IMG/VR virus record: IMGVR_UViG_3300050142_000050
Span: 96,001 to 160,000 of that record
From: a virus
Taxonomy: Duplodnaviria; Caudoviricetes
Length of the DNA stretch: 64,000 bases
Strand: one strand, 5' to 3'
Numbering within the stretch: the stretch's first letter is position 1; every line of letters begins with the position of its first letter. A program made the position numbers and the translations under genes. Positions 2,365 to 49,856 of the stretch are shown piece by piece. The notes under the pieces are model-generated. The model made no database searches. It had not been told where the DNA came from and worked only from the letters and a program-made list of their open reading frames with translations.

Positions 2365-3153
2365 ATGTTCTTTAAGATCGCAAACTTCATCGACAGTCTG
2401 TTCTATGTGACGACTGTCACCACCACTACCACGACTATCGTGGAAGAAGAACTTCCCATCGTGGTCACCCCTGTGTCTCACACTGGTGGTACTCCTCCTG
2501 CACCTAAGGATGAGATCCCCCATTGTCATCATGCGATTGCCGATCGTCGTGATCGCATCCGTACTTCGATGATTCCCGTGTTCATTAATGAGCATGCAGT
2601 ATCACTCACCTCGTCTGAGGAAAGCGTACGTGTACCTGCTCAGGTAGTGCGTCGTCGTCCTCTCTTCACACCCGAAGGTGAGCTCGATACCAAAGAGACA
2701 GCATCGATGCTCAACAATCCCATCTTCATGAGCATCAGTAGCGACCAGTCGAACCTCATCTTCCATGATACTTATCGCCTGACGCGTAATTGCCGTCCTA
2801 AGAACCCTGAGTTCTCTCGCACTCGTGTGCGCGACCTACTTCGTGCTCCTGGTACGAAGATCATCACAACAGCCGACAATCGCCGTATCACTCCGAGTGG
2901 TTTCGACATCGTCGGTGAGCTTACCCCTCATCACATCCGACTGGTGATCACCACCAAGACTGGTCGGAACATCATCGTCTACCACAAGAATACAGGCCAG
3001 CTCAACACTAAGCCCGACCTCGTCTTGTTCAGCTTCTGTCTGGCCCGAGTGCTCATCCTGAATCTGGCAGGGATGAACGAATATGTAGATCCTAAGTTCG
3101 AGGGTGAAATCGGTCTCTATACTGCTGCCATCCTCTCACTCCAACTCCGGTAA
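2365..3153 (+). CDS. Hypothetical protein (262 aa)
   Basis: ORF with AAGGAG ribosome-binding site and a Thr/Pro-rich N-terminal segment. Confidence 0.8.
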   Translation: MFFKIANFIDSLFYVTTVTTTTTTIVEEELPIVVTPVSHTGGTPPAPKDEIPHCHHAIADRRDRIRTSMIPVFINEHAVSLTSSEESVRVPAQVVRRRPLFTPEGELDTKETASMLNNPIFMSISSDQSNLIFHDTYRLTRNCRPKNPEFSRTRVRDLLRAPGTKIITTADNRRITPSGFDIVGELTPHHIRLVITTKTGRNIIVYHKNTGQLNTKPDLVLFSFCLARVLILNLAGMNEYVDPKFEGEIGLYTAAILSLQLR

Positions 3154-3170
3154 ATGAAAAGGAAGTTAGG

Positions 3171-3803
3171 ATGGGTAATGAGCCTATAGTGGGTGCCATC
3201 TATCACCCACTGATGGGAGAGGTGGCTATCAACCACCGACGTGGTAATAAACCACGGCTCTTTTGGAAAGTCTATATCAATCCATCCAACAACCGGCAAT
3301 TCCTCTCTATCGATGTAGGTGGGCGCGACACCCTCGTCGGTGAAGTAGGAGAGAAACAGCAGATCATGATCTCCGGATTCCGCAGACGCAGGATCGGAGA
3401 AAAGGATATGTTCTACCTTTCAGGTATCCCTGTCATAGGGACGGATGTCCTGGTGGCTATCACTCCTTTTGTCCGGAGCGAAGTGATAGAAGATGGTGAA
3501 CCTCAACGCTATACCAATGCGAGTGGTGTCATCATCCCATCATCCAGATATGACCGACTCCCTATCAGGAAGGTACCTACCCTCACTGTGAAACCGGGTT
3601 CGACGGGTCCTATCGTCAACCCTATCCTCAAGAAAGAGTATCATCGCGACAAAGCACCCAATCGATCCATGAATGTTTGGGTGGACGGGAATACCCTGAC
3701 AGATAATCCCGAGGATGTATTGATGACTATCGGTCTCAATAGTCCTAAGGACCATCGACACTTTTCAAAACTGGCATGGTGTTACGACACCTACAGGAAG
3801 TAA
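3171..3803 (+). CDS. Hypothetical protein (210 aa)
   Basis: ORF tightly packed in the operon. Confidence 0.75.
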   Translation: MGNEPIVGAIYHPLMGEVAINHRRGNKPRLFWKVYINPSNNRQFLSIDVGGRDTLVGEVGEKQQIMISGFRRRRIGEKDMFYLSGIPVIGTDVLVAITPFVRSEVIEDGEPQRYTNASGVIIPSSRYDRLPIRKVPTLTVKPGSTGPIVNPILKKEYHRDKAPNRSMNVWVDGNTLTDNPEDVLMTIGLNSPKDHRHFSKLAWCYDTYRK

Positions 3804-3826
3804 TCTCTTTCACAAGGAAGAACGCT

Positions 3827-4072
3827 ATGTTTGACCCAGACACAGTCATCGTCCAGAATGTTCATCTCATGATCACCCATTTGGGCATCGGTGATGTCGC
3901 TTGGAAACATCGTTCCAGAACTGAGCGCTACAATCCTCTGCGTTATGAGGTACGCATCAAGGTAGGGGCCATCCCCTTCCACTTTAACAAAGACGGAAAC
4001 CTGCTCCTCAAATGGTTCAAGTTCACTCGTCGCATCAAACACGCTTTCAGGATCATCGTGGAATCCTGGTAA
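3827..4072 (+). CDS. Hypothetical protein (81 aa)
   Basis: Start moved to ATG 3827, which follows AAGGAAG, within track ORF 3776-4072. Confidence 0.6.
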   Translation: MFDPDTVIVQNVHLMITHLGIGDVAWKHRSRTERYNPLRYEVRIKVGAIPFHFNKDGNLLLKWFKFTRRIKHAFRIIVESW

Positions 4073-4129: not shown

Positions 4130-5629
4130 GTGATCAATCATCATTGGCTTTTCGAGAAGACCACTGAACCCAAGCGCATCTTCGTGCTCCATTCGGGCGG
4201 ACTCGACTCGACCTACATGGTCACCAAGCTCATCGCCGCCGGGCACTTCGTGACAACCGGATATGTCGTGATCGAGAACAACTACACGAAGGTCGAGCGC
4301 GAGAGGAAAGCCATCTCGCATCTGACTACCTTGTTTTACAAATATGCCGAAGAGCACCGCCCGAAGAACGTATTCCACACCGAGTGCGACCTTCTCACAT
4401 ATCGGGTGAAGGGAGAGTGGAATAAAGCACTCGGCTACAAACAGCTACCAGGATTCCTTCTCGGACTACTGGCATCGGTGGATACCCAGCGGTTCGACAT
4501 CGTCGCTATGGGCTATGCACTGGGTGATCAGATGATCTCACACATCAGTGACATCGAGTCGATCTGGAGCGCTTTCGAAGGGGTATGCGTCAGCCCGCTT
4601 CCCAAGCTCGAGTTCCCTCTGAAGACCTTCGCCAAAGCGCATATGGTCGACAACCTCCCGGATGAAGTGTTGGCTCGCATCACGTGGTGTGAATCCGAAG
4701 GTCAGTATGACTTCTGTGGAGTATGCGGCGCATGCGAACGAGCTAAAGCTGACCGCGTGTATATACCGATTAGGCGTCTACGTGATGAGGTCGCCGACGA
4801 GCCCGAAGTAGCCTCCGCTGAGAATGTTAAACTGGAGGCGGCCACCAAATCGGAGATCGATGACAGAAAGGAGTCCGAAGTCACCACTGCCCGTGACGAA
4901 GAATCCGAAATATGGTCCGTATTGGAGCCCGATCTCGATGAAGATCCCCGCCCAGTCGACTCCGAAGATCGTACACTCCTTGATGATCAGGATGACGTGA
5001 TTGTAAGAGAAGAATCACCTCCGGTCGTCGAGGGCGACATTATCATCGAAGAGCGAACTGGGTTCGAAAAATGGTGTACCAACGTCCTCGAACGACGTCT
5101 ACCCGAACCCTCAGATATCGCTGCATCGAAATCTCGTATCAGACTACAAGACGTACGGTCGGTGCGTCAGCATATTACCGAGACTCTTTCTTCACGCTGT
5201 TATACTAAGACGACGGACGAGCTCGTCGGACATTTCTTCGGTATACTACAAAGTGAAGATTTCGTGGTGGATGCCCCAGTTATCGTACAGGCAGACGATT
5301 TCTATTACACCTATAAGTCATTGAATGCGTTCATTGGCTCCCTCTTACAGGGAGATAAGGAAGTCCTCCATATCAAGTTGACAGAATCTGGATATTCGTG
5401 TCTGCATTTCGATTTCGACACGAAAGAAAAGCTCTTTGAGTTCCTCGAAGCCACCACCATCGATCGAGATTCCGTGTTTGTTAAACTCTCCAGTAGGTAT
5501 GGTTGGGGGTCTTCCTATAGGAATCTCAACGAGTTTCTTGCAGCCCATTCGGTAGAGAAGGGTAAGGAATTCCCCATCGCCAGCATTACCTCCGAGTCGG
5601 AAGGTCAGGTGAACCATGAAAGTCGGTGA
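4130..5629 (+). CDS. queC: QueC-like PP-loop ATPase fused through an acidic linker to an unknown C-terminal domain
   Basis: N-terminal FVLHSGGLDST PP-loop and WC...CGVCGAC zinc motif as in 7-cyano-7-deazaguanine synthase; about 290 extra residues follow. Confidence 0.75.
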   Translation: MINHHWLFEKTTEPKRIFVLHSGGLDSTYMVTKLIAAGHFVTTGYVVIENNYTKVERERKAISHLTTLFYKYAEEHRPKNVFHTECDLLTYRVKGEWNKALGYKQLPGFLLGLLASVDTQRFDIVAMGYALGDQMISHISDIESIWSAFEGVCVSPLPKLEFPLKTFAKAHMVDNLPDEVLARITWCESEGQYDFCGVCGACERAKADRVYIPIRRLRDEVADEPEVASAENVKLEAATKSEIDDRKESEVTTARDEESEIWSVLEPDLDEDPRPVDSEDRTLLDDQDDVIVREESPPVVEGDIIIEERTGFEKWCTNVLERRLPEPSDIAASKSRIRLQDVRSVRQHITETLSSRCYTKTTDELVGHFFGILQSEDFVVDAPVIVQADDFYYTYKSLNAFIGSLLQGDKEVLHIKLTESGYSCLHFDFDTKEKLFEFLEATTIDRDSVFVKLSSRYGWGSSYRNLNEFLAAHSVEKGKEFPIASITSESEGQVNHESR

Positions 5630-6272
5630 TGATAACATCCGCGCACAGGACGTCGGACTGATTGTTTCCCACCTTAGAGAACACTACGAGGGTTGGGTGT
5701 GGTCTATCGGTATATCCGATGAGGGTATCGAGGTGATGATTGCACCTGATGAAACTACACCCAGTGCGGTGGCCAGAATCTTTGCTCGTCATAAAGACGG
5801 ACAAGATGAATTCCGTCACCTATTCCAGCACCGAGCTGTGAACCACACCACTCTGGGTATGTTTGGACTTAATGTGCAGAACGCACTAGAGTCTTTTCTC
5901 GATAACACAAATTTGGTGTATTCTGACATCATCCCTCTGGAGCCAAATGGTCCAGATGGAGACTTTCTGTACGCCAAAATTATAGATGAGCATCAAATTC
6001 CGATGACCGTGGAACGCGCTCTGGCCAATATCCAAATCATCCAGGAGACTACCGAAGGTCTTGAGATCGAAAGACTCTACTTCGGTCAATGCTATCGCTC
6101 ATGCGATGCGTCCATCTACTGGAAGCATCCTGAGTTCGGTGAGGGAGGTTTTGACTGTGATATCAGATCACTCTCAGTATCGGGACCCCTCAAGGAGGTA
6201 ACGACCCTCCTTACTCTTGCATCACGGTGTCCTGAGGTTTTCGAGACGAACAGCTATTCTCATAAAAAATGA
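5616..6272 (+). CDS. Hypothetical protein (218 aa)
   Basis: ORF overlaps the stop of the QueC-like gene. Confidence 0.75.
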   Translation: MKVGDDNIRAQDVGLIVSHLREHYEGWVWSIGISDEGIEVMIAPDETTPSAVARIFARHKDGQDEFRHLFQHRAVNHTTLGMFGLNVQNALESFLDNTNLVYSDIIPLEPNGPDGDFLYAKIIDEHQIPMTVERALANIQIIQETTEGLEIERLYFGQCYRSCDASIYWKHPEFGEGGFDCDIRSLSVSGPLKEVTTLLTLASRCPEVFETNSYSHKK

Positions 6273-6277
6273 AATCC

Positions 6278-6292
6278 CATATCACTCTTATG
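6278..6292 (+). promoter_or_regulatory. Putative early promoter CATATCAC-N5-TG in front of the RNA operon
   Basis: catatcactcttatg matches the recurrent YATATYAC-N5-TG motif. Confidence 0.6.
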
Positions 6293-6347
6293 AATAAATC
6301 GGGATGTCCGACATTGAAAAAATGTTAGTCTGAACGAACCTTATTCT

Positions 6348-6816
6348 GTTGGAAGAGAGTCATCGATCATACCCCCTCTCTCAGAGCCGACCCCACCTCG
6401 GCGATCGGTGATTTCTCTTCCAACCTATTTGACAACCATGGACCATCCCTCCCGAAGGTCAGACCCGTCCCTCGAGGTCCATGGTTGTCAAATGGATATT
6501 CCAGTTTCACAAAGCAGTGCGGTAACGCACTCGCCCTTTTGTGGTCGCAGTCAGGACAACGATCCTGACTAGAGGGTAACCAGAGGTCGTGAGCTCCACT
6601 CGACTACTTGACATGTACACGACCCCCATGTCAGGTGGAAGAATCTTAACGACCTCTGGTTATTCTATACGAGATTCGCACGACGGCTGATGTAACCACC
6701 GGCGGTTGGGCGAAAGCTCGGTACTCGAATGATTCCTCCTGCATGTCGGCTTAGGACACTGCATGTGGGGGTTGTTCCCTCTTCCTCCTTGGAGGGTAGA
6801 GTCGATCGAGTACCGA
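6348..6816 (+). ncRNA. Candidate large structured non-coding RNA 1
   Basis: No credible ORF. Consecutive stems: 6348-6358/6414-6424, 6427-6444/6476-6493 (18 bp perfect), GTAA tetraloop hairpin 6516-6531, 6549-6570, 6577-6590/6649-6662 (14 bp), 6718-6728/6806-6816. Confidence 0.6.
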
Positions 6817-6828
6817 GTACTTATTACT

Positions 6829-6904
<76 letters not shown>

Positions 6905-6909
6905 CAGAT

Positions 6910-7328
6910 TCGGTCTGAGGAGACGCGCCTCTCATCGAGTAGTCGCTGTATATGACACTACTCGCAACAGTGATCAGCAGCTGTAGAAGTCACACCCTCA
7001 CGGTGGTCGAATCTTAGACGTGAGATTCGATAAGAGCTTCAGCTACAACCCCATGGAAACCAGTAGGGCCGCTACTGCGGTGATCGTGTCGGTACGGTAA
7101 CGATGATATAAGTCGCGTCTCTTGTCGCCAGTGCGTAATGTCGCTCTGGCGGAGTCGTGCATCATACGACCCTCCGATAATCTGGATTTCCATGGGGATC
7201 CTATTCCCTACCATTTGATGGATAGACGTAGGGGTGTACCTTATTAACCATCTAGGTCTTCCTGCTCACCGGGGTGATACCGAAAATAAGTCGATCGGTT
7301 TATCCGGTCGATTAGGGTGAGCCATTTT
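6910..7328 (+). ncRNA. Candidate large structured non-coding RNA 2 (possible pseudoknot)
   Basis: No credible ORF. Stems 6936-6942/6958-6964, 7007-7016/7021-7030, 7049-7063/7182-7197, crossing helix 6918-6927/7114-7123, and terminal stem 7264-7270/7316-7322 followed by CATTTTT. Confidence 0.55.
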
Positions 7329-7351
7329 TGAGTCTAGTGCAGGAGAAGGTT

Positions 7352-7729
7352 ATGGCCGATATCAAACTGACAGACTCCGCAGAAGCTAAACGCGAGCTGC
7401 GAAACAAGAAAACCTATGAGCTCTTCAAGAAGCTGGTCAATATGTCAGCTTCACAGATCGAGAAATTCCTCGAGACTGATGAGAGTAAGAAGGTAGGCTT
7501 CAAGAAGGAAGGTAGTGATGAGTCAGTAGGACATCAGTCTGGACGACGTATCATCAAGATCCTACGTACACCTAAGTCACAGCTCGATGAGAGTGACTAT
7601 GCCCACATGCGTAAGGTATGTGCATACATCACACGCCATCTGGCTCAAGGTGGTCCTGAGACAAAAAAGGAAACGAGCCGCTGGCGCTATTCCTTGATGA
7701 ACTGGGGACATGATCCCCTCAGGAAATAA
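7352..7729 (+). CDS. DUF3140-family protein
   Basis: LVNMSASQIEKFLETDESKKVG, ESVGHQSGRRIIKIL, DYAHMRKVCAYITRHLAQ and SRWRYSLMNWGHDP follow the DUF3140 consensus; ATG 7352 follows AGGAG. Confidence 0.85.
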   Translation: MADIKLTDSAEAKRELRNKKTYELFKKLVNMSASQIEKFLETDESKKVGFKKEGSDESVGHQSGRRIIKILRTPKSQLDESDYAHMRKVCAYITRHLAQGGPETKKETSRWRYSLMNWGHDPLRK

Positions 7730-7737
7730 ACGAATAT

Positions 7738-7825
7738 GGAGGGTACTGAGGTTGGCTCCTCACACGGATTTGAAACCCGTAGGTGCGTTAATTCGCGGAT
7801 GGTTCGATGCCATTGCCCTCCGCCA
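7738..7825 (+). tRNA. trnS: tRNA-Ser(TGA), long variable arm
   Basis: Acceptor GGAGGGT/GCCCTCC, discriminator G plus CCA, anticodon loop TTTGAAA, variable hairpin GCG-TTAATT-CGC, T arm GATGG-TTCGATG-CCATT. Confidence 0.85.
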
Positions 7826-7950
7826 CAGATAAGGATCTCGTGCTCTCCTTTTCCGTCCTTCATGTGCCTCTACGGAGGCCGTCGGGCGATGTACTTCGGC
7901 ATTACGATGCCGATGGCTTAGAGCGCTATAACGGGATTCTTTAGGGTGAC

Positions 7951-7991
7951 GGGTGAGGGCTTACGCCCTCACCCTGATCTCCTTATTTTTT
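7951..7991 (+). terminator. Terminator closing the RNA operon
   Basis: gggtgagggc-ttac-gccctcaccc followed after 8 nt by TTATTTTTTTT. Confidence 0.75.
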
Positions 7992-8039
7992 TTTATCATA
8001 TGGTGCACTCGCACCTGACAATATCGGAAGGGTATCGAC

Positions 8040-8294
8040 ATGGCTTCTTCTCCCGAAATCGATCAGCTTCAGATGCAAGTACAAGTACTCTCAGATCAAG
8101 TGAGTACCCTCGCACAACGTCTGAGCGGACTCGAAGCTGGAGCTGCGGCGGCTGACATCTCGCGCGGTGCGACCGATCAGTACATCGTCAATCGTATGAA
8201 CAATGACGATGCAGCTGACGCATCGACCTTCGCCGTGATGAGCAGCAAGATTGCTCATCTGGAAGCACGTCTCGCCGGCGCCGGTATCGCATAA
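8040..8294 (+). CDS. Small coiled-coil protein (84 aa)
   Basis: GGAAGG ribosome-binding site, heptad-like N-terminus LQMQVQVLSDQVSTLAQRLSGLE, and its own terminator. Confidence 0.75.
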   Translation: MASSPEIDQLQMQVQVLSDQVSTLAQRLSGLEAGAAAADISRGATDQYIVNRMNNDDAADASTFAVMSSKIAHLEARLAGAGIA

Positions 8295-8302
8295 TAACAA
8301 GT

Positions 8303-8348
8303 GGAGGTGGGGTAAAATCCCCACCTCCTATCACCTTATTTTTTTTTG
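8303..8348 (+). terminator. Terminator
   Basis: ggaggtgggg-taaaat-ccccacctcc followed by a displaced TTATTTTTTTTT. Confidence 0.75.
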
Positions 8349-8376
8349 TATTGATTGATCTCAAAAGTTCAATCTT

Positions 8377-8637
8377 ATGGTTCAATCCTGGACTAACTTC
8401 ATCAAAAAGTTTTCACATATGGCAATCCAGCTAGGTAGGCGATATCGCCAACGGGGGGCACCCGGCTTCGTCACAGTCAAAGCTACCCTGAATCGACATG
8501 ATCAGGACTACAAGGAAGGGTTCCGGTTCCTCGGATCGAATGGTCGTACCTATCGTGAAGATGGTACCTACAGCTCCACGCGTGGAGCTATTTCAGATCA
8601 CGACCTCATCGAGTGGGTCGATCGTCCTACTGAGTAA
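8377..8637 (+). CDS. Hypothetical protein (start at 8377 or 8419)
   Basis: Short ORF between two terminator hairpins. Confidence 0.6.
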   Translation: MVQSWTNFIKKFSHMAIQLGRRYRQRGAPGFVTVKATLNRHDQDYKEGFRFLGSNGRTYREDGTYSSTRGAISDHDLIEWVDRPTE

Positions 8638-8655
8638 CTCGATACTTTTACAAAA

Positions 8656-8686
8656 TGACAGAGGGGGCGATGAGCCCCCTCTGTCA
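8656..8686. terminator. Bidirectional hairpin between convergent genes
   Basis: tgacagagggggc-gatga-gccccctctgtca, 13-bp stem. Confidence 0.65.
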
Positions 8687-8692
8687 GTGTAG

Positions 8693-11600
8693 TTATCCGT
8701 TGAAGAAGATATCGACGAGCTTTGCTTTTCCGACCTCCATGTTCCTCTCTGCGATACCTAGGAGAGGACTCTTCACGATACGGTTGATGATCGAGGTGAG
8801 TGAGAACAGAGCACCCACAGGTACACCCGATTCCGTATAGTGCGATTCTTCGGAAACGTGTGAGATGATTGCCTTATTGGCATTACCGAAACAGAGCTTA
8901 TCTCCAGCTTCAGCCGTGAGAGTCTCTTGGATCATGTATTCCAACAAAACAGTATCCTCAGTGAACTCGATACCCTTGTAATAGGTACCAGGTGCCACAT
9001 ATCCAGGACGCTCAGAGATCTTCGAACCTGGGATAGCAGAGAGAGCAGCGTTCTGTTGACGCTCTTCTTTCTCATATACCTTCAGGATCGATTTGAGGCT
9101 GTCTGAGAGCTCATTTCGGTCACAGGCGTAAAGTATGCGCAGCTTACTTACAGTGCCTGTATAGCCCGCTGTAGGCGTCTGACGACTAAGCTTAGCCATC
9201 AGGTCCAACTTAGACTGCGTCTGGTAGAGTTCAGTCTGCACCATGACGTCATCGCTGATCACACATAGAGGAGTGGTCGTATCGACATGATCACCAGGTT
9301 TGACAGTCGATATGAGGATGGCATTCTTCTGAGTGACCACTGGACACTGGTGAGCAGGCGTCATATTCAGACGATTAGCCATAGCGCGAGTGATCTCGCA
9401 GGCGTCTTCGTGATTACTCCCTTTTTCACACAGAGCCACCGTTTCGATGATACCATGCTTGAACGTCACTTGCTTGGACATCGGATCGGGTACGAAGAAC
9501 CCATCGTTGTAGATGAGGATATCTCCTTCCTTGATCTTCTCTCCCACATGGACATTGACCTTCCTTGTTTGGAGGAGGAATGCCCCTGAGATCTGCGAGT
9601 AAGCATCCTTGTAGGAATAAGACTTCACTTCACCAGGAGTAGTGGTACCGATCAGTTCCAGACGGATGTAGTAGAGACAGCTCTCGCTACCATCTGAGAG
9701 AGCTTTCACCAACTGACTCTGCTTACGCACCAAATCACGATCAGGGATACCATCCACCGAATCACATCGTAGACGAGATACCACCTTACCATAGGTGGAA
9801 TTCGTCAGAGCGAAGATACCGTTGGCTGGATAAGAACCCAGTGACCGCTCGGTGACCAAGATACCGACGAAGTTGTGATCCTTGCGATACTTGTCGATGA
9901 TGGGGTCGGAATAAGGAAGAGTCAGCTTCCGCAAAGGATCGATAGGCTTATCAGCATATCGGACCCGCAGTACCTTAGCTTTCTCATCGATAGACTCGAC
10001 TACGCCATCTGCTTCAGCAGCGATAGCGAATGTGTCACTGACCAGATGAGGAAGAACCGCATCATACCCAGTACGCACAGAAGCTGTCTCACCATCTCCA
10101 TGGTTAGGTACATAGTGAGAGATCTGGATGCTCAGGTAGGAAGCACGCTTACCATCGTCCGTGGTACCACCAGGCATCACGTTAGTACCGATGGCGAGCA
10201 TCTGAGGAGCTTCTAGCTCATCACCCTCCTTATACGCCTTAGGGATACCGTGGACGTTGTCGATGTTAGGAGATGCCGACAGATAGGAGGTGATACCTAC
10301 CTTACCAGAGTCAGGTACAGCATCAGAGACGATACCTAAACCATCCTTGGGGTAGATACGAGACTCCTGTGTGATAGCATCCGCAGATCGACCGCCACGA
10401 CCCGTGAAGGTGTAGTTAGCAGACTGTTTCACTTCATGGATTGGATTGATCGTGTCGTTGATCGCCACAGTAGCATCCTGGACGATCTTCTGGAAGACAT
10501 CTTCAGGATTGATCGAGAATGACTTCTTACCATTGGTACGACGCCACCTGGAGAATTCCTTGAAGATAGACTCATAGACGATCCCATTCCACCGTTCAAA
10601 CTTACGGAAGCGGTGGTTAGCGATAGACGCCGTATCGATCGCGTAATAGTCGGTGACCATCATGTTTGCACGGAGTAAGAGAGCTGACCACACGGTCGGC
10701 TCGCTCATATCCCGCAGGACGGTCTCGGTGATGGGATCAACAAAGAAATCGACGAATTGTGTAACCGTCTGGATAGTCCCAGGCTTCATCTTCTTGGACA
10801 CCAGTACCTTTGTGTAAGGAGCTGGGAAGTTCAAGTCCTTGAAGTTGATATCCTTGAGATCAGCCCAAGTCAAACCGGCTGCGATCAAAGACCGCTGGAG
10901 GGGATATCGGTTAAAGACCAAGAAACCATCAGCGAAGCGGATCGAGATATCATCGATCCCGATCACGGGTCGGTTACCACTCGAATAGAAACGATACTGG
11001 AGATTGATCTTCTTGAACAGATTCTCCAGACCCATCTCATATCCCAAGGTGAATACCAGAGGGATCTTCTCACCCGGGAAACTGACGAGCGTGTATTCAT
11101 TAACCTGCTTTTGGAGACCAGCCTCACTACCCAGTACATCGACCAAGAGTTGGTTGAAGGACTTCCAATGAGAAAGCTCCTCACCCTTGTGCGATACTTT
11201 ACGAATGGAGTTCTTAAAGTCCCAGAACAGGAGCTCCATATCACTCGTGATACCGACAAAGATACCAAACTTCGATGACAGAGATGTCGCCACCTTTTGG
11301 ATAGCCGACATCCGATCAGTGATAGGTGCACCATCCTGACCGAAGTAGAAGGTCATACCTCCCACAGTGATCTCAGTGAAGCCCTTACTGATCGCTGAAT
11401 AGTCATAGGGGAGAGGCTTTACGGGATCTTCAGCCTTACCCACCTGAGCAGTGAGCATACCTTCTGCGCGCAGTTTCAGGATATGAGCGATGATCACGTG
11501 TTCGAAACTATTACGCTTCGATTCCACACGTGATACGAGCACCTTCCCGAAGTGCGAAGAGAGGGATACTTCACTATCACTGATCTTACAGATCGGAAGA

Positions 11601-13303
11601 GTGACAGCCTGGCGAGTCAGGATATACTCAGTACCACTGATCGTGATCGTACCATCCTTCGAGATGGTAGGACGAGAGAACTTGATGGTGTGAGACCTAC
11701 CATCGATATCCCGCATGGACACCTTGTAGGTGGTCGTCTTATCCATCTCAGTGCTGTGATGTTCTTCCTCGATATGAGTGATGAACAAACCATGCTTAGC
11801 CGTAGAAGCCAGTACCTTCGCCAGATCGGCATGGTACATCTTCTCCTGATAGGCCTTATCGATAGCCACCAATGTGGACTGCTTGTGAGACTCCTCAGGA
11901 GCTCCTGTCAAGAAGTCCATCTTCTTGGGCTTAAAGCTCTCAGGAGGCTGCTCCTGGATCAGCTCACTCAAAGTCTTACCACCGATGGTTACATTGAAGT
12001 GATTGTCCACTAGCTCTCGTTTACGAGCTTCCTTCTTGGGTTCGACAGCCACCTTCTCAGCGACCACCTTGTCCACATGCGTACGGATGTGATCTTCGAG
12101 CTTAGTATCCTGCTCACCCAATTCGATCGGTCTTACCACCACCTGCGATACAGGAGTGGTATGGTCGTCATGGAGATAACCACCAGCAGCATCAGCTGGA
12201 TCATGCTTTACCGCGAACTTGTCTTCTTTGGGGAGCTCTTTGACCTTCTCCTCGATAGGAGCACTCGTCTCACTGTCGATGATACCCTGCTCTTCGATCT
12301 CACCTGTCTCTTCATGAGGATCAGTCTCCATATCGATGAAGTCACCACTGGGATGACGCAGTGTCATGAAGTGTGTGTAAAGCTTCCCAAAGAAGCCAGG
12401 GTCATTAGAGAACTCGATGATGTCACCCAGGTTATAGATGACTGCCTTCCTACCCTTGTACAGGACGATGTTGATCACCTTAAGGACATCCGTCGGAATT
12501 CGCTCCAGGAGCGACGAGGAGCGCAGGTCCCGTAAGGATGGGTGATCCTTACCCAAGAGCTTAAGATCCGTCTTATACGGCGTCACATTCAACCTACGGC
12601 TACGTCCTAGGACATATCCCAAGATATGCACCAAAGGAAACAGCGTGGGATCATGACGCAGTTTAGCCATGGTCGAATTCGACAGCTCTTTTGCAGCTGC
12701 GACAAAAGCAGCCTTCGTCGTCGTGCCCTCATTCTGAGGTAGGAACAAAAAGTGCTGACATCCAGTACCGATCGATTCGATCGAGTTCAAGATAGTGCGG
12801 AAGATCACATCGAACTTGCGATACTCCTCATTGACACCCGGCGTCTTGAGATACATAATCGGCGAATAGTCGACACGCGTGATCGTCCCAGGCATGGTCC
12901 CGATAGTGCGAGGTACCATGATCTTCTTATAGTCACGGTGATGCTGATACCAATAACTGATACCCGCCATCATCGGAGTAGGACGGAAGACCAGATTCTC
13001 CTTCACTGGGAGAGGCTTCGAATGCTCATCTGCGATCTGATTGTAGATCAGGATATAGCGAGGAGCCTTAGCCTCATCGATCGGACTGAAGTGAGGAGTA
13101 GGGAGACAATCACCCTCAGGTTCGAGAGTCTCCATATTTCCGATAGTGTGGACCACCGACCCGATAGGCATGGCCAGCTCTGTGAAGTCATCGATCTTCT
13201 TAGGAGCCTGTCCTATACGCCGGGTATGAAACATCGTGTAGAAGCGCTGGTAGGAGATGCGCATAGCCTCCATACCCAGCCCGGTAAAGGGGTTAAAGTC
13301 CAT
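8693..13303 (-). CDS. rpoB: Virion RNA polymerase beta-like subunit, N-terminal part (phiKZ gp178-like)
   Basis: 1536 aa with diverged beta motifs PDSGKVGI, TTDDGKRA, GSNHEDA and AGDKL...NKAII; lacks the beta C-terminus, which is encoded separately at 55823. Confidence 0.9.
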   Translation of the reverse strand: MDFNPFTGLGMEAMRISYQRFYTMFHTRRIGQAPKKIDDFTELAMPIGSVVHTIGNMETLEPEGDCLPTPHFSPIDEAKAPRYILIYNQIADEHSKPLPVKENLVFRPTPMMAGISYWYQHHRDYKKIMVPRTIGTMPGTITRVDYSPIMYLKTPGVNEEYRKFDVIFRTILNSIESIGTGCQHFLFLPQNEGTTTKAAFVAAAKELSNSTMAKLRHDPTLFPLVHILGYVLGRSRRLNVTPYKTDLKLLGKDHPSLRDLRSSSLLERIPTDVLKVINIVLYKGRKAVIYNLGDIIEFSNDPGFFGKLYTHFMTLRHPSGDFIDMETDPHEETGEIEEQGIIDSETSAPIEEKVKELPKEDKFAVKHDPADAAGGYLHDDHTTPVSQVVVRPIELGEQDTKLEDHIRTHVDKVVAEKVAVEPKKEARKRELVDNHFNVTIGGKTLSELIQEQPPESFKPKKMDFLTGAPEESHKQSTLVAIDKAYQEKMYHADLAKVLASTAKHGLFITHIEEEHHSTEMDKTTTYKVSMRDIDGRSHTIKFSRPTISKDGTITISGTEYILTRQAVTLPICKISDSEVSLSSHFGKVLVSRVESKRNSFEHVIIAHILKLRAEGMLTAQVGKAEDPVKPLPYDYSAISKGFTEITVGGMTFYFGQDGAPITDRMSAIQKVATSLSSKFGIFVGITSDMELLFWDFKNSIRKVSHKGEELSHWKSFNQLLVDVLGSEAGLQKQVNEYTLVSFPGEKIPLVFTLGYEMGLENLFKKINLQYRFYSSGNRPVIGIDDISIRFADGFLVFNRYPLQRSLIAAGLTWADLKDINFKDLNFPAPYTKVLVSKKMKPGTIQTVTQFVDFFVDPITETVLRDMSEPTVWSALLLRANMMVTDYYAIDTASIANHRFRKFERWNGIVYESIFKEFSRWRRTNGKKSFSINPEDVFQKIVQDATVAINDTINPIHEVKQSANYTFTGRGGRSADAITQESRIYPKDGLGIVSDAVPDSGKVGITSYLSASPNIDNVHGIPKAYKEGDELEAPQMLAIGTNVMPGGTTDDGKRASYLSIQISHYVPNHGDGETASVRTGYDAVLPHLVSDTFAIAAEADGVVESIDEKAKVLRVRYADKPIDPLRKLTLPYSDPIIDKYRKDHNFVGILVTERSLGSYPANGIFALTNSTYGKVVSRLRCDSVDGIPDRDLVRKQSQLVKALSDGSESCLYYIRLELIGTTTPGEVKSYSYKDAYSQISGAFLLQTRKVNVHVGEKIKEGDILIYNDGFFVPDPMSKQVTFKHGIIETVALCEKGSNHEDACEITRAMANRLNMTPAHQCPVVTQKNAILISTVKPGDHVDTTTPLCVISDDVMVQTELYQTQSKLDLMAKLSRQTPTAGYTGTVSKLRILYACDRNELSDSLKSILKVYEKEERQQNAALSAIPGSKISERPGYVAPGTYYKGIEFTEDTVLLEYMIQETLTAEAGDKLCFGNANKAIISHVSEESHYTESGVPVGALFSLTSIINRIVKSPLLGIAERNMEVGKAKLVDIFFNG

Positions 13304-13565: not shown

Positions 13566-13936
13566 CCTGATGTTCAGCAGTGCTCGTTAGACACTACCCG
13601 TCCTTTCTTCCTTAGGAAAAGAGGACTGCTTACACTCTCGTGTAAGAGCAGACTATATCTTCACCCTCTCGTTGGAGTAGGGTGCTCCCCATTTCGGGAT
13701 CACTCGATCCCTACACCGTGGCAGGTGGTTAGTCGTTGAGCACATCGCATGACCTATAGAGGCTTTAGCGACTTCGCTGCGGATTTTCTCTATCTCTGTA
13801 ATTTTTACCATCTCGATGTGATTAGCATCGCCCCTCACTATCTAGTTTCCTAGGTGGGTTGGTATACAGAGCCTAACGAGACGTTCCCGCAATTAGAGGA
13901 GATTCACTTTACCATCTCTGATAAAGAGGACATCGC

Positions 13937-15268
13937 TTATTGCATAAAACACGACTTTACTTCAATGACAGGAAACTTCTTTAGGTCCACATGCTGGATA
14001 TTCCAACTCCTCCAGCGCATGGTACCATCACTCGACTTAAGCATCCGGGACATTACCGCCGGATCACAACGCTTCTCTCGATCCTCATTACACCACTCCG
14101 TCACACTGGTGTAATATCTCACTACTCCATCGCCCCCTACGATATTCAGAGGACGATCCGTCGCCTTAGTCCGATCGAAGATATCTAAGACCTCCTCAGG
14201 ATATACAGGCCACTTCACGAGCTCGCCTTCTTCTGCGAGGCGGAAACCCATACCCTTCCAAGGTATGACTGTCTCATACATCAACAGACGATCGAGCACA
14301 TAGTGACGCATCCCATACTTCACCGCTACCTCAGAGCGATTCCCCATGGCGAGCACTCGATGGGTCTTGAGATCCATCACCACGATTGACTTATCGGCCT
14401 TATCGCCGATACGACTCGGATTACGAGACAACTCCTCCCAACTGCGCGGATCATCAGCCTTCTTAAAGATATACCCATGGAAAGGCTTCCCATCAGTAGT
14501 CCTCCGCTCCACCGCCTGGTGAGCACTTTGAGGAGACACACCGAGGAGCCTCGCCATCTCATGGTATCCACCCACCACGAACTCCTGCCCATCACTCAGC
14601 CTCCTGAGGAGTATCTTCTTCTGAGTCTCACCCCGCACACCATCAGTGAAGGCATGCATGTTGTTATCAGAGTAAGTAGCCCACTCGAGATTTCGGATGG
14701 TGTTATTGAGCTTATTGGAGTCCTTATGGTTGACCGTAAGATGTTCAGTGTCCAGAGGATGATCCAAGAAGGTGAGAGCCAACAGTCGATGGAGACGTTG
14801 TTGCTTACCATCGATTTTAACAGTAGTCTCCATATATCCGTTTCTCGGAGAGACACCGACGGGATACTTGTCGACGTACCGTCGCAACTCAGGACCACGT
14901 TCTACAATCCTTATTTCCAAGGACACCCCAGGTACCTTGAACCACACTCCCAGTGGGATGTGTTCTCCTATCCTCTCACGGACTCTATACTGACGATAAT
15001 CCCATTCGAGATTTTCTATCCGGAGATCATCACGATTCCCATTTCGGAAAGACACCGACAACCACTCAGGATCCTTGTCGGTCGGCTTATACGTTATCAG
15101 CATCAGCCTATCGAGCGGGTGCGAAGAAGGCTTGTGACTTTTACCACGGATCTTAACTGCACGTCGACAGTGTCGACTGATGTATTCTTTCTGAACCTCT
15201 CCGGTAGATATCAGCGTGACGACTGCATCTTCGGAGATGTCATATAGAGGATTTGTTGGAATTCTCAT
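13937..15268 (-). CDS. Intron-encoded HNH homing endonuclease with C-terminal NUMOD1/IENR1-like repeats
   Basis: LHRLLALTF...VNHKDSNKLNNTIRNLEWATYSDNNMHA is an HNH core; three following repeats resemble NUMOD1 helix-turn-helix units. Confidence 0.9.
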   Translation of the reverse strand: MRIPTNPLYDISEDAVVTLISTGEVQKEYISRHCRRAVKIRGKSHKPSSHPLDRLMLITYKPTDKDPEWLSVSFRNGNRDDLRIENLEWDYRQYRVRERIGEHIPLGVWFKVPGVSLEIRIVERGPELRRYVDKYPVGVSPRNGYMETTVKIDGKQQRLHRLLALTFLDHPLDTEHLTVNHKDSNKLNNTIRNLEWATYSDNNMHAFTDGVRGETQKKILLRRLSDGQEFVVGGYHEMARLLGVSPQSAHQAVERRTTDGKPFHGYIFKKADDPRSWEELSRNPSRIGDKADKSIVVMDLKTHRVLAMGNRSEVAVKYGMRHYVLDRLLMYETVIPWKGMGFRLAEEGELVKWPVYPEEVLDIFDRTKATDRPLNIVGGDGVVRYYTSVTEWCNEDREKRCDPAVMSRMLKSSDGTMRWRSWNIQHVDLKKFPVIEVKSCFMQ

Positions 15269-17967: not shown

Positions 17968-20900
17968 ATGGATCCGTCGGATTCCACACCTTCAACGAGC
18001 ATGGACTCCGAACTCTCCCAAGTACAAGTAGGACCTAAAGTAAGGCCTGAAAAGTACACGGGCGGTCTGGCTAAGTCTCATGCTAAACCCCACGCTGACG
18101 AACCTGCTCGTTCAAAGAGTATGTCAACCATCGACCGATTGGTCCAGAATGGCATCCTCCCCAATTCCAGACAGCGCCGTGATCAGTTCGGCGCCAAGAT
18201 GGATGCGAAGGACTCCTTTAAGATCAAGACTCTGACTCGTAAGCTCGAGCGTGAGATAACGATCCGGCACAAGACTGAGATAAACGATGGACCCTCGCAT
18301 ATGCGGGTACGTCGTTTCGACATAACCTCTCAGTCGATGCGGATGATCACGGCTAATGCTACTCTGGCAACACATCAGTTCCAGAAGACGCAGATGCTGC
18401 CTTATATGCGCAAGAGCCTGGCTCTGAGCTATAAGAAGGTAGAGATCCTCCGGGCAATCAATGCCAGTATCCAGACCATGCATCGCAGTAGTCTTGAGAA
18501 GCTCGAAGCTATCAAGATGAATACAGCAATGCGCGACGCAGGTAAGGGAGGCATATTCAAGAGGCTCAAGGACTCCGTCACTGATCGAGCTCTGTTCAGA
18601 GTAGGCGACAACATCGCAGCAGCGTATCTCGATCGATACGACCAGATGTATGTCAAGCATATCTCACCACGTCTCGCTCGCTTGGAGCAACTCTTCAATC
18701 GTGATGGTGCGAAAGGTACTGTCAACGGGGTAGGTCGTACCCTCCGAGGTACCCTCAATCGTCAGCGCGGTAAACTCCGCAATGTCAGTAACTCGACAGG
18801 TGACACCCATGGTAAGTGGACCAAGCGTGCGGCTGGTCTGGGTGCACGAGTCCTCGATACTGCCGTTAAGGTAGGTCAGAAGACAAAGCTTCCTGGTTTT
18901 GTAAATACCATCGCGACTGAATCTGTCAGAGATCACACTTCGGTGTGGGGATCACTACGACCTCTACAGACGAAGTTCGACCAGAACAAAGATGACGATG
19001 ATCTACATTCCAGCAATAAGGTCGTCGACGTCCTACAGCGCACTCGCGTCGACAATGAACGATACTTCGCGAAGTCTCTTACCCACTTAGCCAATCTCGA
19101 CCGCATGGTCTCTGATATCCGCAATATGGGTAAGAGTGGTATCGGACCATCCTCAGACATGACGCCTGACTTCGACCTCGGTGGAGATAAGGGAAGACCC
19201 AGTGCTTCACCTTCACAGCCAGCACAATTTGGTCCTCCTAAGCCTGGTATGTCGGTACGTGCACGTCGTCGGTACGAGAAGGCGAAGAAAGACTTCGAAC
19301 AGCGTCAGCGTGGTACAGGTGGTGCAGCGAACATTCGTAATCGCATCCACAGCGTCAACGAGACTCTCAGAGATCGTCTTGAATCCATGCGAGCCCTTCG
19401 CGAAGAACGCAAGGCTCAAGGGAATACCAAGAAAGAAGAATCTGCTGAGGATGCAGCGGCGCGTGAGCACGCTCGTGAGTTAGCAGCTGAGAAAGCCAAG
19501 GCTCGTCGTGAGCGTGAACTCGAGAAGAAGCGCATCCGCGATGAACGTCGTGCAGCTGCTGCCGAACGCACTGCTAAGGGTAAAGCTCGCAATGACTATA
19601 TCCAGACCAGTAAGGTCTCTGAGGCAACCAAGAACCGATTCAGAAACGGTTTCACCGAGACAGGTCTCAATGCCAAGAAACCACCCAAGGCTCCACGCAA
19701 GACGATAAAGCAACGAATCGGCGGTTGGGCTGCTTCTAAGTTCGAAGGACCTGGTGACGATTATGGTCTGCTAGGTAAGGCTTGGAACCTTTCATCGAAC
19801 TTGGGTATCAATCGTGCGACAGGTAGAGGCGCTCGTAAACTCGGCCGAGGACTCTGGAAGGGCACTAAGTGGGCCGGTAAGGAACTCGTCAAGTCGCCCT
19901 GGACCGCAACGAAAGGTGCATGGCGCGCCACAAAGGTCGCCGGTAAGGTGGCCGTCAGCGCTACCAAGACCGCTTGGAGCGTCGGGAAGACTATCGCTAA
20001 GTTGGGTAAGGGGGGTGTCGGTATCGGCCTCGCTGGTGCAGGCGTCAACTATCTGTCCGATAAGTATCTGACAGGTGGAGCCAAACGTGCTGGTAAGACA
20101 CTGGGTACGGCGATGGAGTATGGCTCCATCGGTTTCATGCTTGGTGGACCTGTCGGCGCAGCAATCGGTGCCTCTGCTGGTGTCCTCATCGAGAACTTCG
20201 ATGTGGTCTCCCACTATGCCAAGAAAATCGGTATCGACTTCGCAGCGATCGGTCGAGGTATCTCCAATGCAGCGTCCTATGTCTGGGAAGGCACTAAGGG
20301 TGTTGTCAAGGGGATGTGGACCGGTCTTGTAGGTCAGGATGCAGAGTACGATTGGACTGGTCGTGTTAAGAAGCAGGAGAAGCCATCCATCGTAGGTCGC
20401 ACCATCGGATTCTTCTTCGGTAGAGATGCCAAGAAGGATCGCTTCGGTAACATCGTAGATGCGGGTCAGACATCCGTATTCGGACACATTAAGAATGGTT
20501 TCACGAAAACCTTCTTTGGTGACAAGGATAAGGATGGTACGTTCAAGCCTGGTACCTCGATTATTTCGATGATCAAGGACAAGGCAGGTTCGATCCTCGA
20601 TACATTCTCACAGGCGCTGACAGGTATCGGCAACTCGATCGCCAACTCATCGGTGGGTAAGGCAGTCCAGACTGCTTATAACACCACAGCCGGTGCAGTA
20701 CAGCAGACAGCTGGGGATATCGTCCAGGGGGTACAAGGTGCCGTCGGGGCGTTTACCGGTCTGAAGCCTGGTCAGAAGGCGACACGAGCTGACCGCAACA
20801 ATAATCCGGGTAATGTGATTGCGAATAAGTGGACTGCTACACTACCTGGTTACGTAGGTAGTGATGGTAGGTTTGCTATCTTCGCTTCTCCCGAGCATGG

Positions 20901-22143
20901 GTTTGCGGCACAGATCAAAGTCATTGAGGGATATATCCGTAAGGGTACAAATACCCCACGGAAGATCATTTACAAATACGCACCTCCTCATGAAAACGAC
21001 ACCGGTGCATATGTCAACAACGTGTGTAAGTCTCTTGGGGTCAACCCCGACGAACCGCTACCTGTCGAAAAGGTGCCGGCTATGGCAGCAGCTATGGCTA
21101 AGATCGAAGGTTGGCATGGTGGTGTGGGTAGTAAGCCATCACCCGTCCCGGCCGCCGGTACCGGAACCACAGCGACTCCAGCTAAACCGGGTGCACCAAC
21201 AGCTGCTACTCCCGGTAAACCGGGATCTACCCCGACCGCACCGAAACCGACAGGTATCGCGGCAGTAGTAGCTACCAAGGGCGTCTCCTCGGTCATGGGG
21301 TCGGCTACTCCGTCTTCGACGGGTCCTACCACTGTGACTCCTGCTGCTTTTGCAGCTCTGAAGGATAAGCAGAAGGTAGGTGCAGCCAACTCGAATAACA
21401 AACCCACAACCGCTCCGGCTCAGACACCAGCGGCTAAACCTGCGGTACCTACGCCTAAGCCGGCTACCAATGACAACCGTCCTTCGGTGGCTTCCACATC
21501 CAAGCGAGGTGACGTCACTAATGCAGTGGTACCCATCCCTGTCCACTATGGTTCGGAAGAACCTTCATATGGGTCTGGGAATACACAGCAGAAGTCGGCT
21601 AAGCCTGCGGCCAGCAATGCAGCTGTCGTACCAGTAGCTTACGAGATCCCATCGTCAGTGTCGCCCAAGAGTGGTGCTGGCGACATCGGTACTCTCGTAC
21701 GAGCCCTGTTCGATAACACAGCTGCTCTGGAACGCAATACGTCTGCACTCACTGGTGAGCCTACCACTAAGTCGAAGACCATGGTGCCTTCTAACATGCA
21801 ACCCTCCAGGGTCGCTATGAAGAGTTCCACACCAGTCGTGAAGACATCGAGTGTGATCTCACCTTCAGTGGTCAATAAGACCATTCCGACAGTAGCTACA
21901 CCTGCTCCTACGACCACACCGACACCTACTACACAGATAGCAGCGGCTACCCCAGCACCTGCATCATCTGTTATCTCGAAACCTGTCACCCCAGCAGCGA
22001 CTCCCGTCTCTGCACCAGCGCCCACACCTGCACCTGTAGCTCCATCTGGTCCCCAGATGGCATTCGCCCCACCGGTACCTAGTGCGAGTAGTGGGAACTT
22101 CCCATCGCTTAAACGAGCCGGTAGTCGATCAGGTATGGCTTAA
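17968..22143 (+). CDS. Tape-measure-like tail protein with a putative lysozyme-like NNPGN domain (phiKZ gp181 position)
   Basis: 1391 aa; helical and roughly 11-residue repeats (KGLWKGTKWAGKELVKSPWTATKGAW), domain RNNNPGNV...FAIFASPEHG...KYAPPHENDT..Y, and a Pro/Ala/Thr-rich tail. Confidence 0.7.
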   Translation: MDPSDSTPSTSMDSELSQVQVGPKVRPEKYTGGLAKSHAKPHADEPARSKSMSTIDRLVQNGILPNSRQRRDQFGAKMDAKDSFKIKTLTRKLEREITIRHKTEINDGPSHMRVRRFDITSQSMRMITANATLATHQFQKTQMLPYMRKSLALSYKKVEILRAINASIQTMHRSSLEKLEAIKMNTAMRDAGKGGIFKRLKDSVTDRALFRVGDNIAAAYLDRYDQMYVKHISPRLARLEQLFNRDGAKGTVNGVGRTLRGTLNRQRGKLRNVSNSTGDTHGKWTKRAAGLGARVLDTAVKVGQKTKLPGFVNTIATESVRDHTSVWGSLRPLQTKFDQNKDDDDLHSSNKVVDVLQRTRVDNERYFAKSLTHLANLDRMVSDIRNMGKSGIGPSSDMTPDFDLGGDKGRPSASPSQPAQFGPPKPGMSVRARRRYEKAKKDFEQRQRGTGGAANIRNRIHSVNETLRDRLESMRALREERKAQGNTKKEESAEDAAAREHARELAAEKAKARRERELEKKRIRDERRAAAAERTAKGKARNDYIQTSKVSEATKNRFRNGFTETGLNAKKPPKAPRKTIKQRIGGWAASKFEGPGDDYGLLGKAWNLSSNLGINRATGRGARKLGRGLWKGTKWAGKELVKSPWTATKGAWRATKVAGKVAVSATKTAWSVGKTIAKLGKGGVGIGLAGAGVNYLSDKYLTGGAKRAGKTLGTAMEYGSIGFMLGGPVGAAIGASAGVLIENFDVVSHYAKKIGIDFAAIGRGISNAASYVWEGTKGVVKGMWTGLVGQDAEYDWTGRVKKQEKPSIVGRTIGFFFGRDAKKDRFGNIVDAGQTSVFGHIKNGFTKTFFGDKDKDGTFKPGTSIISMIKDKAGSILDTFSQALTGIGNSIANSSVGKAVQTAYNTTAGAVQQTAGDIVQGVQGAVGAFTGLKPGQKATRADRNNNPGNVIANKWTATLPGYVGSDGRFAIFASPEHGFAAQIKVIEGYIRKGTNTPRKIIYKYAPPHENDTGAYVNNVCKSLGVNPDEPLPVEKVPAMAAAMAKIEGWHGGVGSKPSPVPAAGTGTTATPAKPGAPTAATPGKPGSTPTAPKPTGIAAVVATKGVSSVMGSATPSSTGPTTVTPAAFAALKDKQKVGAANSNNKPTTAPAQTPAAKPAVPTPKPATNDNRPSVASTSKRGDVTNAVVPIPVHYGSEEPSYGSGNTQQKSAKPAASNAAVVPVAYEIPSSVSPKSGAGDIGTLVRALFDNTAALERNTSALTGEPTTKSKTMVPSNMQPSRVAMKSSTPVVKTSSVISPSVVNKTIPTVATPAPTTTPTPTTQIAAATPAPASSVISKPVTPAATPVSAPAPTPAPVAPSGPQMAFAPPVPSASSGNFPSLKRAGSRSGMA

Positions 22144-22158
22144 TACGGAGAATGAGTA

Positions 22159-49733: not shown

Positions 49734-49856
49734 ATGGAGAAGACTTCCTCTATTGTCGGAACCATCGTCGTATTCGGCCTCGCCATTTATGGCGCGATCG
49801 ATTTGGGCTACAAGATCCTCACGATGTCGCGCAAGCTCAGCGAATACGACGAGTGA
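49734..49856 (+). CDS. Membrane microprotein (40 aa, N-terminal TM; not in the ORF track)
   Basis: AAGGA ribosome-binding site; MEKTSSIVGTIVVFGLAIYGAIDLGYKILTMSRKLSEYDE. Confidence 0.7.
   Translation: MEKTSSIVGTIVVFGLAIYGAIDLGYKILTMSRKLSEYDE

Follow-up and report, generated by a model that had tools for sequence, protein, structure and literature searches.

Why does a phage genome that is ~91% coding (by simple ORF tiling) keep 1,079 nt in which no ORF is found, and does this DNA encode a structured RNA? The phage in question is a jumbo phage present in many leaf-litter metagenomes, and the gap (6273-7351, + strand) is the longest gene-free stretch in its 249.6-kb genome. All coordinates, unless another record is named, are those of the window, i.e. 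the whole 64,000-nt stretch analysed here, which corresponds to bases 96,001-160,000 of the IMG/VR record (CheckV completeness 89%); features lie on the + strand unless indicated otherwise. The second half of the gap, 447 nt that span from the CCA end of a tRNA-Thr gene to the start of a DUF3140 gene (6905-7351), had been described in an earlier note (for 6910-7328) as a compact tertiary RNA with two crossing helices, resembling a ribozyme, riboswitch or scaffold, whose terminal hairpin could attenuate read-through into the DUF3140 gene. We asked which of these features differ from chance, whether the stretch has relatives, and which type of element it most resembles.

The gap and its tRNA genes

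The gap is flanked by a 218-aa orphan ORF (5616-6272) and by the DUF3140 gene (7352-7729; 125 aa; Pfam PF11338, E 8e-36). For the DUF3140 protein, we found neither a relative of solved structure nor an NCBIfam name, and a full-text literature search for 'DUF3140' retrieved no paper. A tRNA-Thr(UGU) gene with an encoded CCA (6829-6904; ARAGORN; 69.6 bits with Rfam) sits in the middle of the gap, immediately 5' of the structured stretch, and is the sole tRNA found genome-wide by ARAGORN with default settings. A second tRNA, a non-canonical type II tRNA-Ser(UGA) with CCA (7737-7825), starts eight bases after the DUF3140 stop; it misses both the Rfam gathering threshold (47, tRNA-Sec) and default ARAGORN, and was recognized by the Rfam tRNA-Sec model (45.4 bits, E 4e-8) and by ARAGORN with a relaxed threshold.

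The phage tRNA-Thr is 100% identical to the tRNA-Thr on two bacterial metagenome contigs and 75/76 or 76/77 (98.7%) identical to that of Sphingomonas antarctica and other Sphingomonadales genomes, which suggests that the phage captured it recently from a Sphingomonadaceae host. The bacterial tRNA-Thr genes have flanks unrelated to the 447-nt stretch. The closest bacterial DUF3140 proteins are those of Sphingomonas and Methylobacterium; together, the tRNA-Thr identity and the bacterial DUF3140 matches make a host from the Sphingomonadaceae probable.

Upstream of tRNA-Thr, the first half of the gap carries four stem-closed modules in a row (6348-6817), 67-101 nt each, with closing helices of 11, 18, 21, and 19 bp. 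The folding z-score of this half (6273-6800) is -9.6, far stronger than that of 6905-7351. The last of these modules (6717-6817) holds scrambled copies of the acceptor, T-arm, and D-arm motifs of tRNA-Thr, with a partial copy at 6744-6801. We found no iterons or direct repeats in the gap, nor any anomaly of composition or skew.

Helices and folding strength of the 447-nt stretch

Reading the sequence bears out the two helices described in the earlier note. The first, H1, pairs 6918-6927 (AGGAGACGCG) with 7114-7123 (CGCGTCTCTT) over 10 bp including one G-U pair, and the second, H2, pairs 7049-7063 (CCCCATGGAAACCAG) with 7182-7197 (CTGGATTTCCATGGGG) through 11 perfect pairs, a 1-nt bulge, and 4 further pairs, closing a 149-nt domain (duplex energy -24.5 kcal/mol). 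The H1 5' arm precedes the H2 5' arm, followed by the H1 3' arm and then the H2 3' arm; the two helices do cross. The terminal stem is likewise confirmed: GCTCACC (7264-7270) pairs with GGTGAGC (7316-7322), encloses an inner 10-bp hairpin (7289-7313), and is followed by CATTTTT (7323-7329), the whole forming a branched hairpin (7264-7329) whose outer stem has a pairing probability of 0.96-0.99 in the nested ensemble. From CATTTTT to the DUF3140 ATG (7352) there are 22 nt, not the 24 nt given previously, and these include a Shine-Dalgarno-like sequence, CAGGAGAAGG (7340-7348), which is predicted to pair mainly with the first DUF3140 codons rather than with the leader (mean unpaired probability 0.38).

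Several local hairpins complete the picture. One at 6936-6964 has an 8-bp perfect stem (CGAGTAGT/ACTACTCG) and a 13-nt loop, one at 7006-7031 an 11-bp stem and a 4-nt loop, and one within the H2 domain (7126-7151) a stem of 6 bp plus 3 bp. Another, at 7206-7245, consists of CCCTAC paired with GTAGGG (7206-7211/7228-7233), then GTGTA, CCTTATT, and AACC; it is a weak look-alike of a terminator, identified with low confidence, and its likeness to the phage motif (see below) hints that part of 6905-7351 may be a decayed terminator.

In order to compare these helices with chance, we generated 200 dinucleotide shuffles of 6905-7351. A perfect Watson-Crick run of 11 bp occurred in just 1.5% of the shuffles, so that H2 is significant (p ~0.015 for its core). 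H1, by comparison, is at chance level, because ~0.5 helices of 10 bp with at most one G-U pair are expected per sequence of such length (analytic estimate) and G-U-tolerant helices of at least 10 bp are common in the shuffles (~4 per shuffle, versus 6 observed). Because H1 does not exceed chance, the crossing topology should be regarded as a possibility and not as a finding: of the two crossing helices, H2 alone beats chance, and the proposal of a compact tertiary RNA or pseudoknot is not supported, in that it depends on H1. Among all the helices described, only H2 and the terminal hairpin carry weight. The energies point the same way. Forcing H1 gave -164.1 kcal/mol and forcing H2 -164.9 kcal/mol, each with a probability of ~0.5 in the nested ensemble, and adding the second helix as a duplex to a fold in which its arms are left unpaired gave ~-171 to -173 kcal/mol, i.e. 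a gain of ~6-9 kcal/mol before any pseudoknot penalty. According to these models, a fold containing both helices would bring no clear energetic gain.

H2 is also uncommon with respect to the rest of the genome. Perfect inverted repeats of at least 11 bp with long spacers occur five times in the non-coding DNA of the whole genome, and 5/5 are in the gap (four upstream of tRNA-Thr, plus H2); a sixth, mostly non-coding, is located at 49765-49852. Other intergenic hairpins, genome-wide, nearly all have G-rich stems and loops of 3-7 nt, mostly tetraloops. A strand bias of these G-rich hairpins was considered and rejected, given that a perfect palindrome reads purine-arm-first on both strands.

As a whole, the + strand of 6905-7351 folds at -163.5 kcal/mol (RNAfold; z -4.5) and the - strand at -142.9 kcal/mol (z -2.8). 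This difference of 20 kcal/mol in favor of the + strand indicates that part of the pairing depends on G-U pairs which only the + strand RNA has. For comparison, 40 random 300-nt segments of coding sequence gave a mean z of -1.7 (sd 1.2, minimum -4.0), versus -3.9 to -4.65 for three 300-nt segments across 6905-7351, beyond or at the edge of the coding set. The excess of structure is real but modest, ~2-2.4 sd over the coding background. The tetranucleotides GATC (2,546 occurrences) and TCGA (2,544) are each ~2.6-fold over-represented genome-wide relative to the 975 expected, and the mean z of -1.7 in coding regions probably reflects this excess of palindromes. Folding better than shuffled sequence is therefore a genome-wide property that inflates the apparent structure of 6905-7351. 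The stretch is non-coding, lies on the sense strand of the tRNA/DUF3140 unit, and is more structured than the genome background; to this extent, the earlier interpretation is supported.

Relatives and known RNA classes

A cmscan of 6200-7400 against Rfam 15, on both strands with permissive filters and E ≤ 10, returned tRNA-Thr and three noise matches, all of them outside the stretch, which excludes recognizable GOLLD, ROOL, group I/II introns, riboswitches, small ribozymes, Y RNAs, and tmRNA. At the gathering thresholds, the scan of the whole window retrieved nothing but the tRNA and a group I intron (13629-13968, - strand; 75 bits), the latter in a 633-nt gap between the RNAP beta-like gene (8693-13303) and an ORF at 13937-15268.

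Other gene classes were tried and rejected. No Intron_gpI match was found in the 6273-7351 gap at E ≤ 10, and whereas the 5' strand of P7 immediately precedes the 3' strand of P3 in a group I intron, here the H2 5' arm and the H1 3' arm are 50 nt apart. ARAGORN, with introns allowed and a relaxed threshold, detected no tRNA-like or intron-bearing tRNA in 6905-7351; the same setting does detect an insert-bearing tRNA-Ser in one relative (L021). The small ORFs of the stretch had no PHROGs match, and tblastn of all ORFs from five related or DUF3140-bearing loci against the gap matched DUF3140 alone, so that the stretch is not a decayed protein gene known from relatives.

We searched for relatives of the phage via the DUF3140 protein, the 218-aa neighbor, a QueC-like protein, and RNAP-beta. 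Among 5.8 billion clusters, the nearest relatives of RNAP-beta are 48-56% identical, with none above 56%, and the 218-aa protein lacks any homolog. By these comparisons, the phage is isolated.

The stretch itself was compared with several collections. Apart from the tRNA, nothing in the gap matched any of 50,697 phage records by blastn; a self-comparison against the whole phage genome revealed no paralog; and blastn and nhmmer with both halves of the gap found nothing in the loci of relatives. Three single-sequence covariance models, R1 (7045-7201, the H2 domain), R2 (6905-7048), and R3 (7198-7335, the 3' domain), with the phage's own genome as the positive control, gave self-matches alone and none in the closest complete relative (G001, 307 kb) or in the fetched loci L002-L032; R1 had no match in 151 Sphingomonadaceae genomes. 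With the 3' half of the tRNA as an anchor, searches of IMG/VR, JGI metagenomes, and GTDB genomes led to nothing but tRNA-Thr loci of bacteria, whose flanks are unrelated. As far as sequence comparison can tell, the 447-nt stretch is a singleton: none of the collections searched contains a homolog, nor the phage genome a paralog. All contigs of the phage (at least 25) are 100% identical across the gap, and four further DNA runs have no differing letters in 6905-7351. The listed holders of the stretch are all DNA runs of leaf-litter metagenomes.

The DUF3140 gene occurs elsewhere without this stretch. In L002 (a 307-kb relative) and L019, DUF3140 is packed tightly against the preceding ORF; in the L008 phage, where the protein is 68% identical, the gene is preceded by a terminator of its own, a box resembling a promoter, and a short leader; and in two Sphingomonadales genomes (L033 and L034) the gene is tightly flanked by other ORFs. 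A conserved DUF3140 leader was rejected on this basis. A phage in ENA sample ERZ27249320 has a DUF3140 that is 85% identical; its contig, 556 nt in length, ends 14 nt before the gene. L008 also has, upstream of DUF3140 (2990-4000), ~1 kb that codes poorly, is rich in hairpins, and contains two terminators, with tRNAs still further upstream; this is a different phage, and the region has no sequence relation to the 6273-7351 gap.

The tRNA regions of three relatives (L021, L008, and L022) contain chains of stem-closed modules of 70-220 nt, located between or beside tRNAs, and L021 has seven long-range closing helices within 1.8 kb. These chains are analogous, not homologous, to the 447-nt stretch. 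As they show, structured spacers are a habit in the tRNA regions of this phage group. L021, a 289-kb relative, has an ORF-poor gap of its own (19600-23115, - strand), which contains a tRNA-Ser (20581-20717) whose anticodon loop carries a 52-nt insert, a tRNA (22554-22629) with a group I intron beside it (22695-22941), and a chain of 130-157-nt modules whose closing stems are perfect over 10-13 bp.

The probable transcription unit and its competing readings

A search of 5500-8800 revealed neither a canonical terminator on the + strand nor, on either strand, a sigma-70-like promoter. Given that there is no room for a promoter in the 22 nt between the T-run and the ATG, and that none was found upstream, DUF3140 must be read from upstream. 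The usual terminator of this phage is a G-rich tetraloop hairpin followed, after 6-8 nt, by CCTTATTTTT, with seven occurrences in the scan. The first such terminator on the + strand after the gap lies beyond the second tRNA, at 7951-7994 (GGGTGAGGGC-TTAC-GCCCTCACCC, 6 nt, CCTTATTTTTTTTT), and is the probable end of the transcription unit.

Two further motifs were seen in the genome. A promoter-like box, TGGTAATATGAGG, is present in ~15-20 copies, nearly always on the - strand ahead of genes (e.g. at 2218, 53671, and 58027 of the window, - strand). The two ends of the phage record (G000, ~93-140 and 249591-249638) are nearly identical, with 1 mismatch in 48 nt, and each consists of a terminator hairpin and CCTTATTT, which points to either a terminal repeat or an assembly closed into a circle, though the record is classed as linear without end repeats.

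The reading that we prefer, with a probability of roughly 0.45, is that the 447 nt would be a structured spacer and 5' leader within a tRNA-mRNA co-transcript ending at 7951-7994. The unit would comprise, in this order, the leader hairpins, tRNA-Thr, the 447-nt stretch, DUF3140, tRNA-Ser(UGA), and the terminator. Host RNase P and 3'-end processing would excise the tRNAs, leaving the 447 nt as a long 5' leader of the DUF3140 mRNA; alternatively, a cut near 7330 would release the stretch as a separate stable by-product. Its core would be the 149-nt domain closed by the 15-bp H2, with the very stable branched hairpin directly before the ribosome-binding site, and its likely role would be structural, setting the processing sites and shielding the downstream mRNA from decay at its 5' end. 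We infer co-transcription, processing, and stabilization from this arrangement, and a stabilizing or processing role would be a generic one. Counting against a spacer are the singleton status of the stretch, the zero variation among the contigs, and the fact that the genome folds well overall.

A functionless remnant is the alternative that survives best, although we consider it rather unlikely. The gap would then be a decayed, once busier tRNA region, with lost tRNAs, dead terminators, and insertion scars, and its helices would stem from palindrome-rich composition and leftover hairpins rather than from selection on structure. The lack of any homolog or paralog fits this idea, as do the chance level of H1, the background z of -1.7, the terminator-like relic at 7206-7245, the scrambled partial tRNA-Thr copy in the same gap, and the comparison with the tRNA regions of relatives, which hold 3-8 tRNAs versus two here. 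Nevertheless, 1 kb of junk would rarely persist in a genome that is 91% coding; H2, like the four long-range helices upstream, is perfect, and all five are confined to the gap; the strand asymmetry points to pairing at the RNA level; and the searches left no trace of a protein pseudogene and, at relaxed thresholds, no tRNA-like match.

It is unlikely that the stretch is an independent, stable non-coding RNA with its own function, which would be released from the tRNA precursor and have its 3' end near the hairpin and T-run at 7329. Such an RNA would be analogous, by context, to GOLLD, ROOL, or the species 1 and 2 RNAs of the T4 tRNA cluster. It would have a defined 5' end (the tRNA CCA), a very stable 3' hairpin with T5, excess structure, and one significant long-range helix; moreover, GOLLD and ROOL are often found near tRNA islands, and here a tRNA lies between two structured halves. 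On the other hand, no Rfam family including GOLLD and ROOL matched at E ≤ 10, the stretch is not conserved, being absent from G001 and from every fetched piece of other relatives, and an efficient end at 7329 would leave DUF3140 without a transcript, as no promoter fits in the 22 nt that remain. In an extended form of this idea, the whole 1.08-kb gap would be one large ornate RNA with an embedded tRNA, GOLLD-like but independently arisen in a Sphingomonad-infecting jumbo phage. Its structured 5' half would be the chain of hairpins (6340-6828), its linker would hold tRNA-Thr, and its structured 3' half would be the 447 nt, which include the H2 domain and might form an H1/H2 pseudoknot. The positive support for this GOLLD-like RNA is its context alone, and we judge it improbable.

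A sensing leader, i.e. a riboswitch, ribozyme, or bistable switch in which H1 and H2 are alternative or pseudoknotted and the terminal hairpin attenuates transcription into DUF3140, is highly improbable. The H1 and H2 folds are isoenergetic, which would suit a switch, but H1 is at chance level and near-degenerate alternative folds are usual for an RNA of such length. The Shine-Dalgarno sequence is partly paired in the prediction, but mainly with the coding start. The proposed ribozyme or riboswitch lacks an Rfam match at E ≤ 10, and the leader is absent upstream of DUF3140 in 3 phage lineages and 2 Sphingomonadales genomes (L002, L008, L019, L033, and L034), where the upstream regions are short or unrelated. 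Overall, the stretch does not appear to sense a ligand. As for attenuation, the earlier proposal keeps some ground: the terminal stem is solid (pairing probability 0.99), its T5 begins 2 nt after the 7-bp outer stem, and the whole stands 22 nt before the start codon. An attenuator is possible but weak, however, since the hairpin is branched, 59 nt long, and followed by five T's, unlike the usual terminator of the phage, and the consensus terminator scan of 5500-8800 did not pick it up.

Lastly, a DNA-level element (a protein-binding palindrome, a replication or packaging site, or a recombination hotspot) is barely tenable: H2 and an upstream 18-bp inverted repeat do have perfect palindromic arms, both with CCATGG, but iterons, direct repeats, and anomalies of composition or skew are missing from the gap, G-U pairs favor the + strand fold, and the position is inside a tRNA/mRNA unit.

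In summary, the stretch is probably transcribed as part of a tRNA-mRNA unit, in which it would be a structured spacer, and a pseudoknot, ribozyme, or riboswitch is not supported. As a by-product, the analysis provides a picture of an RNA-rich phage locus with two tRNAs, one of them identical to a host tRNA, and of a likely Sphingomonadaceae host.

Operons in which tRNA and protein genes are mixed, and whose transcripts are processed by RNase P and RNase E, are well established, e.g. thrU-tyrU-glyT-thrT-tufB of E. coli. The locus resembles such operons (the thrU-tufB type and the T4 tRNA cluster) in that a tRNA directly precedes a protein gene, with neither a promoter nor a canonical terminator found between them, a second tRNA directly follows the gene, and the spacers are hairpin-rich. 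It differs in the unusual length of its spacer (447 nt) and in the 149-nt domain, closed by a 15-bp helix, within this spacer, and transcription and processing are here steps that we infer. Attenuator and riboswitch leaders share with the stretch a long 5' leader and a stable hairpin with a T-run just before the Shine-Dalgarno sequence; unlike them, the stretch has no conserved aptamer, its terminal stem has no recognized anti-terminator partner, and it is not conserved along with the gene family downstream, and unlike the hairpin of an attenuator, its terminal hairpin is branched, with 59 nt and five T's. The T4 species 1 and 2 RNAs (rnaC and rnaD) are small, stable RNAs of ~120-140 nt that are co-transcribed with the tRNA cluster. 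They are comparable, by description, as RNAs co-located with tRNAs in a large virulent phage, at ~120-140 nt versus 447 nt here.

[quoted passage not shown] Like them, the 447-nt stretch is encoded by a phage, lies beside tRNAs, has a length of hundreds of nucleotides, and forms multiple hairpins. In contrast, GOLLD and ROOL have widely conserved pseudoknotted folds, whereas the stretch has no family match and a single long-range helix that beats chance. To our knowledge, no function has been assigned to the large structured RNAs beside phage tRNA genes (GOLLD, ROOL, and the T4 stable RNAs), and another tRNA-adjacent structured RNA, in a jumbo phage of soil Alphaproteobacteria, would, if true, widen the puzzle that they pose.
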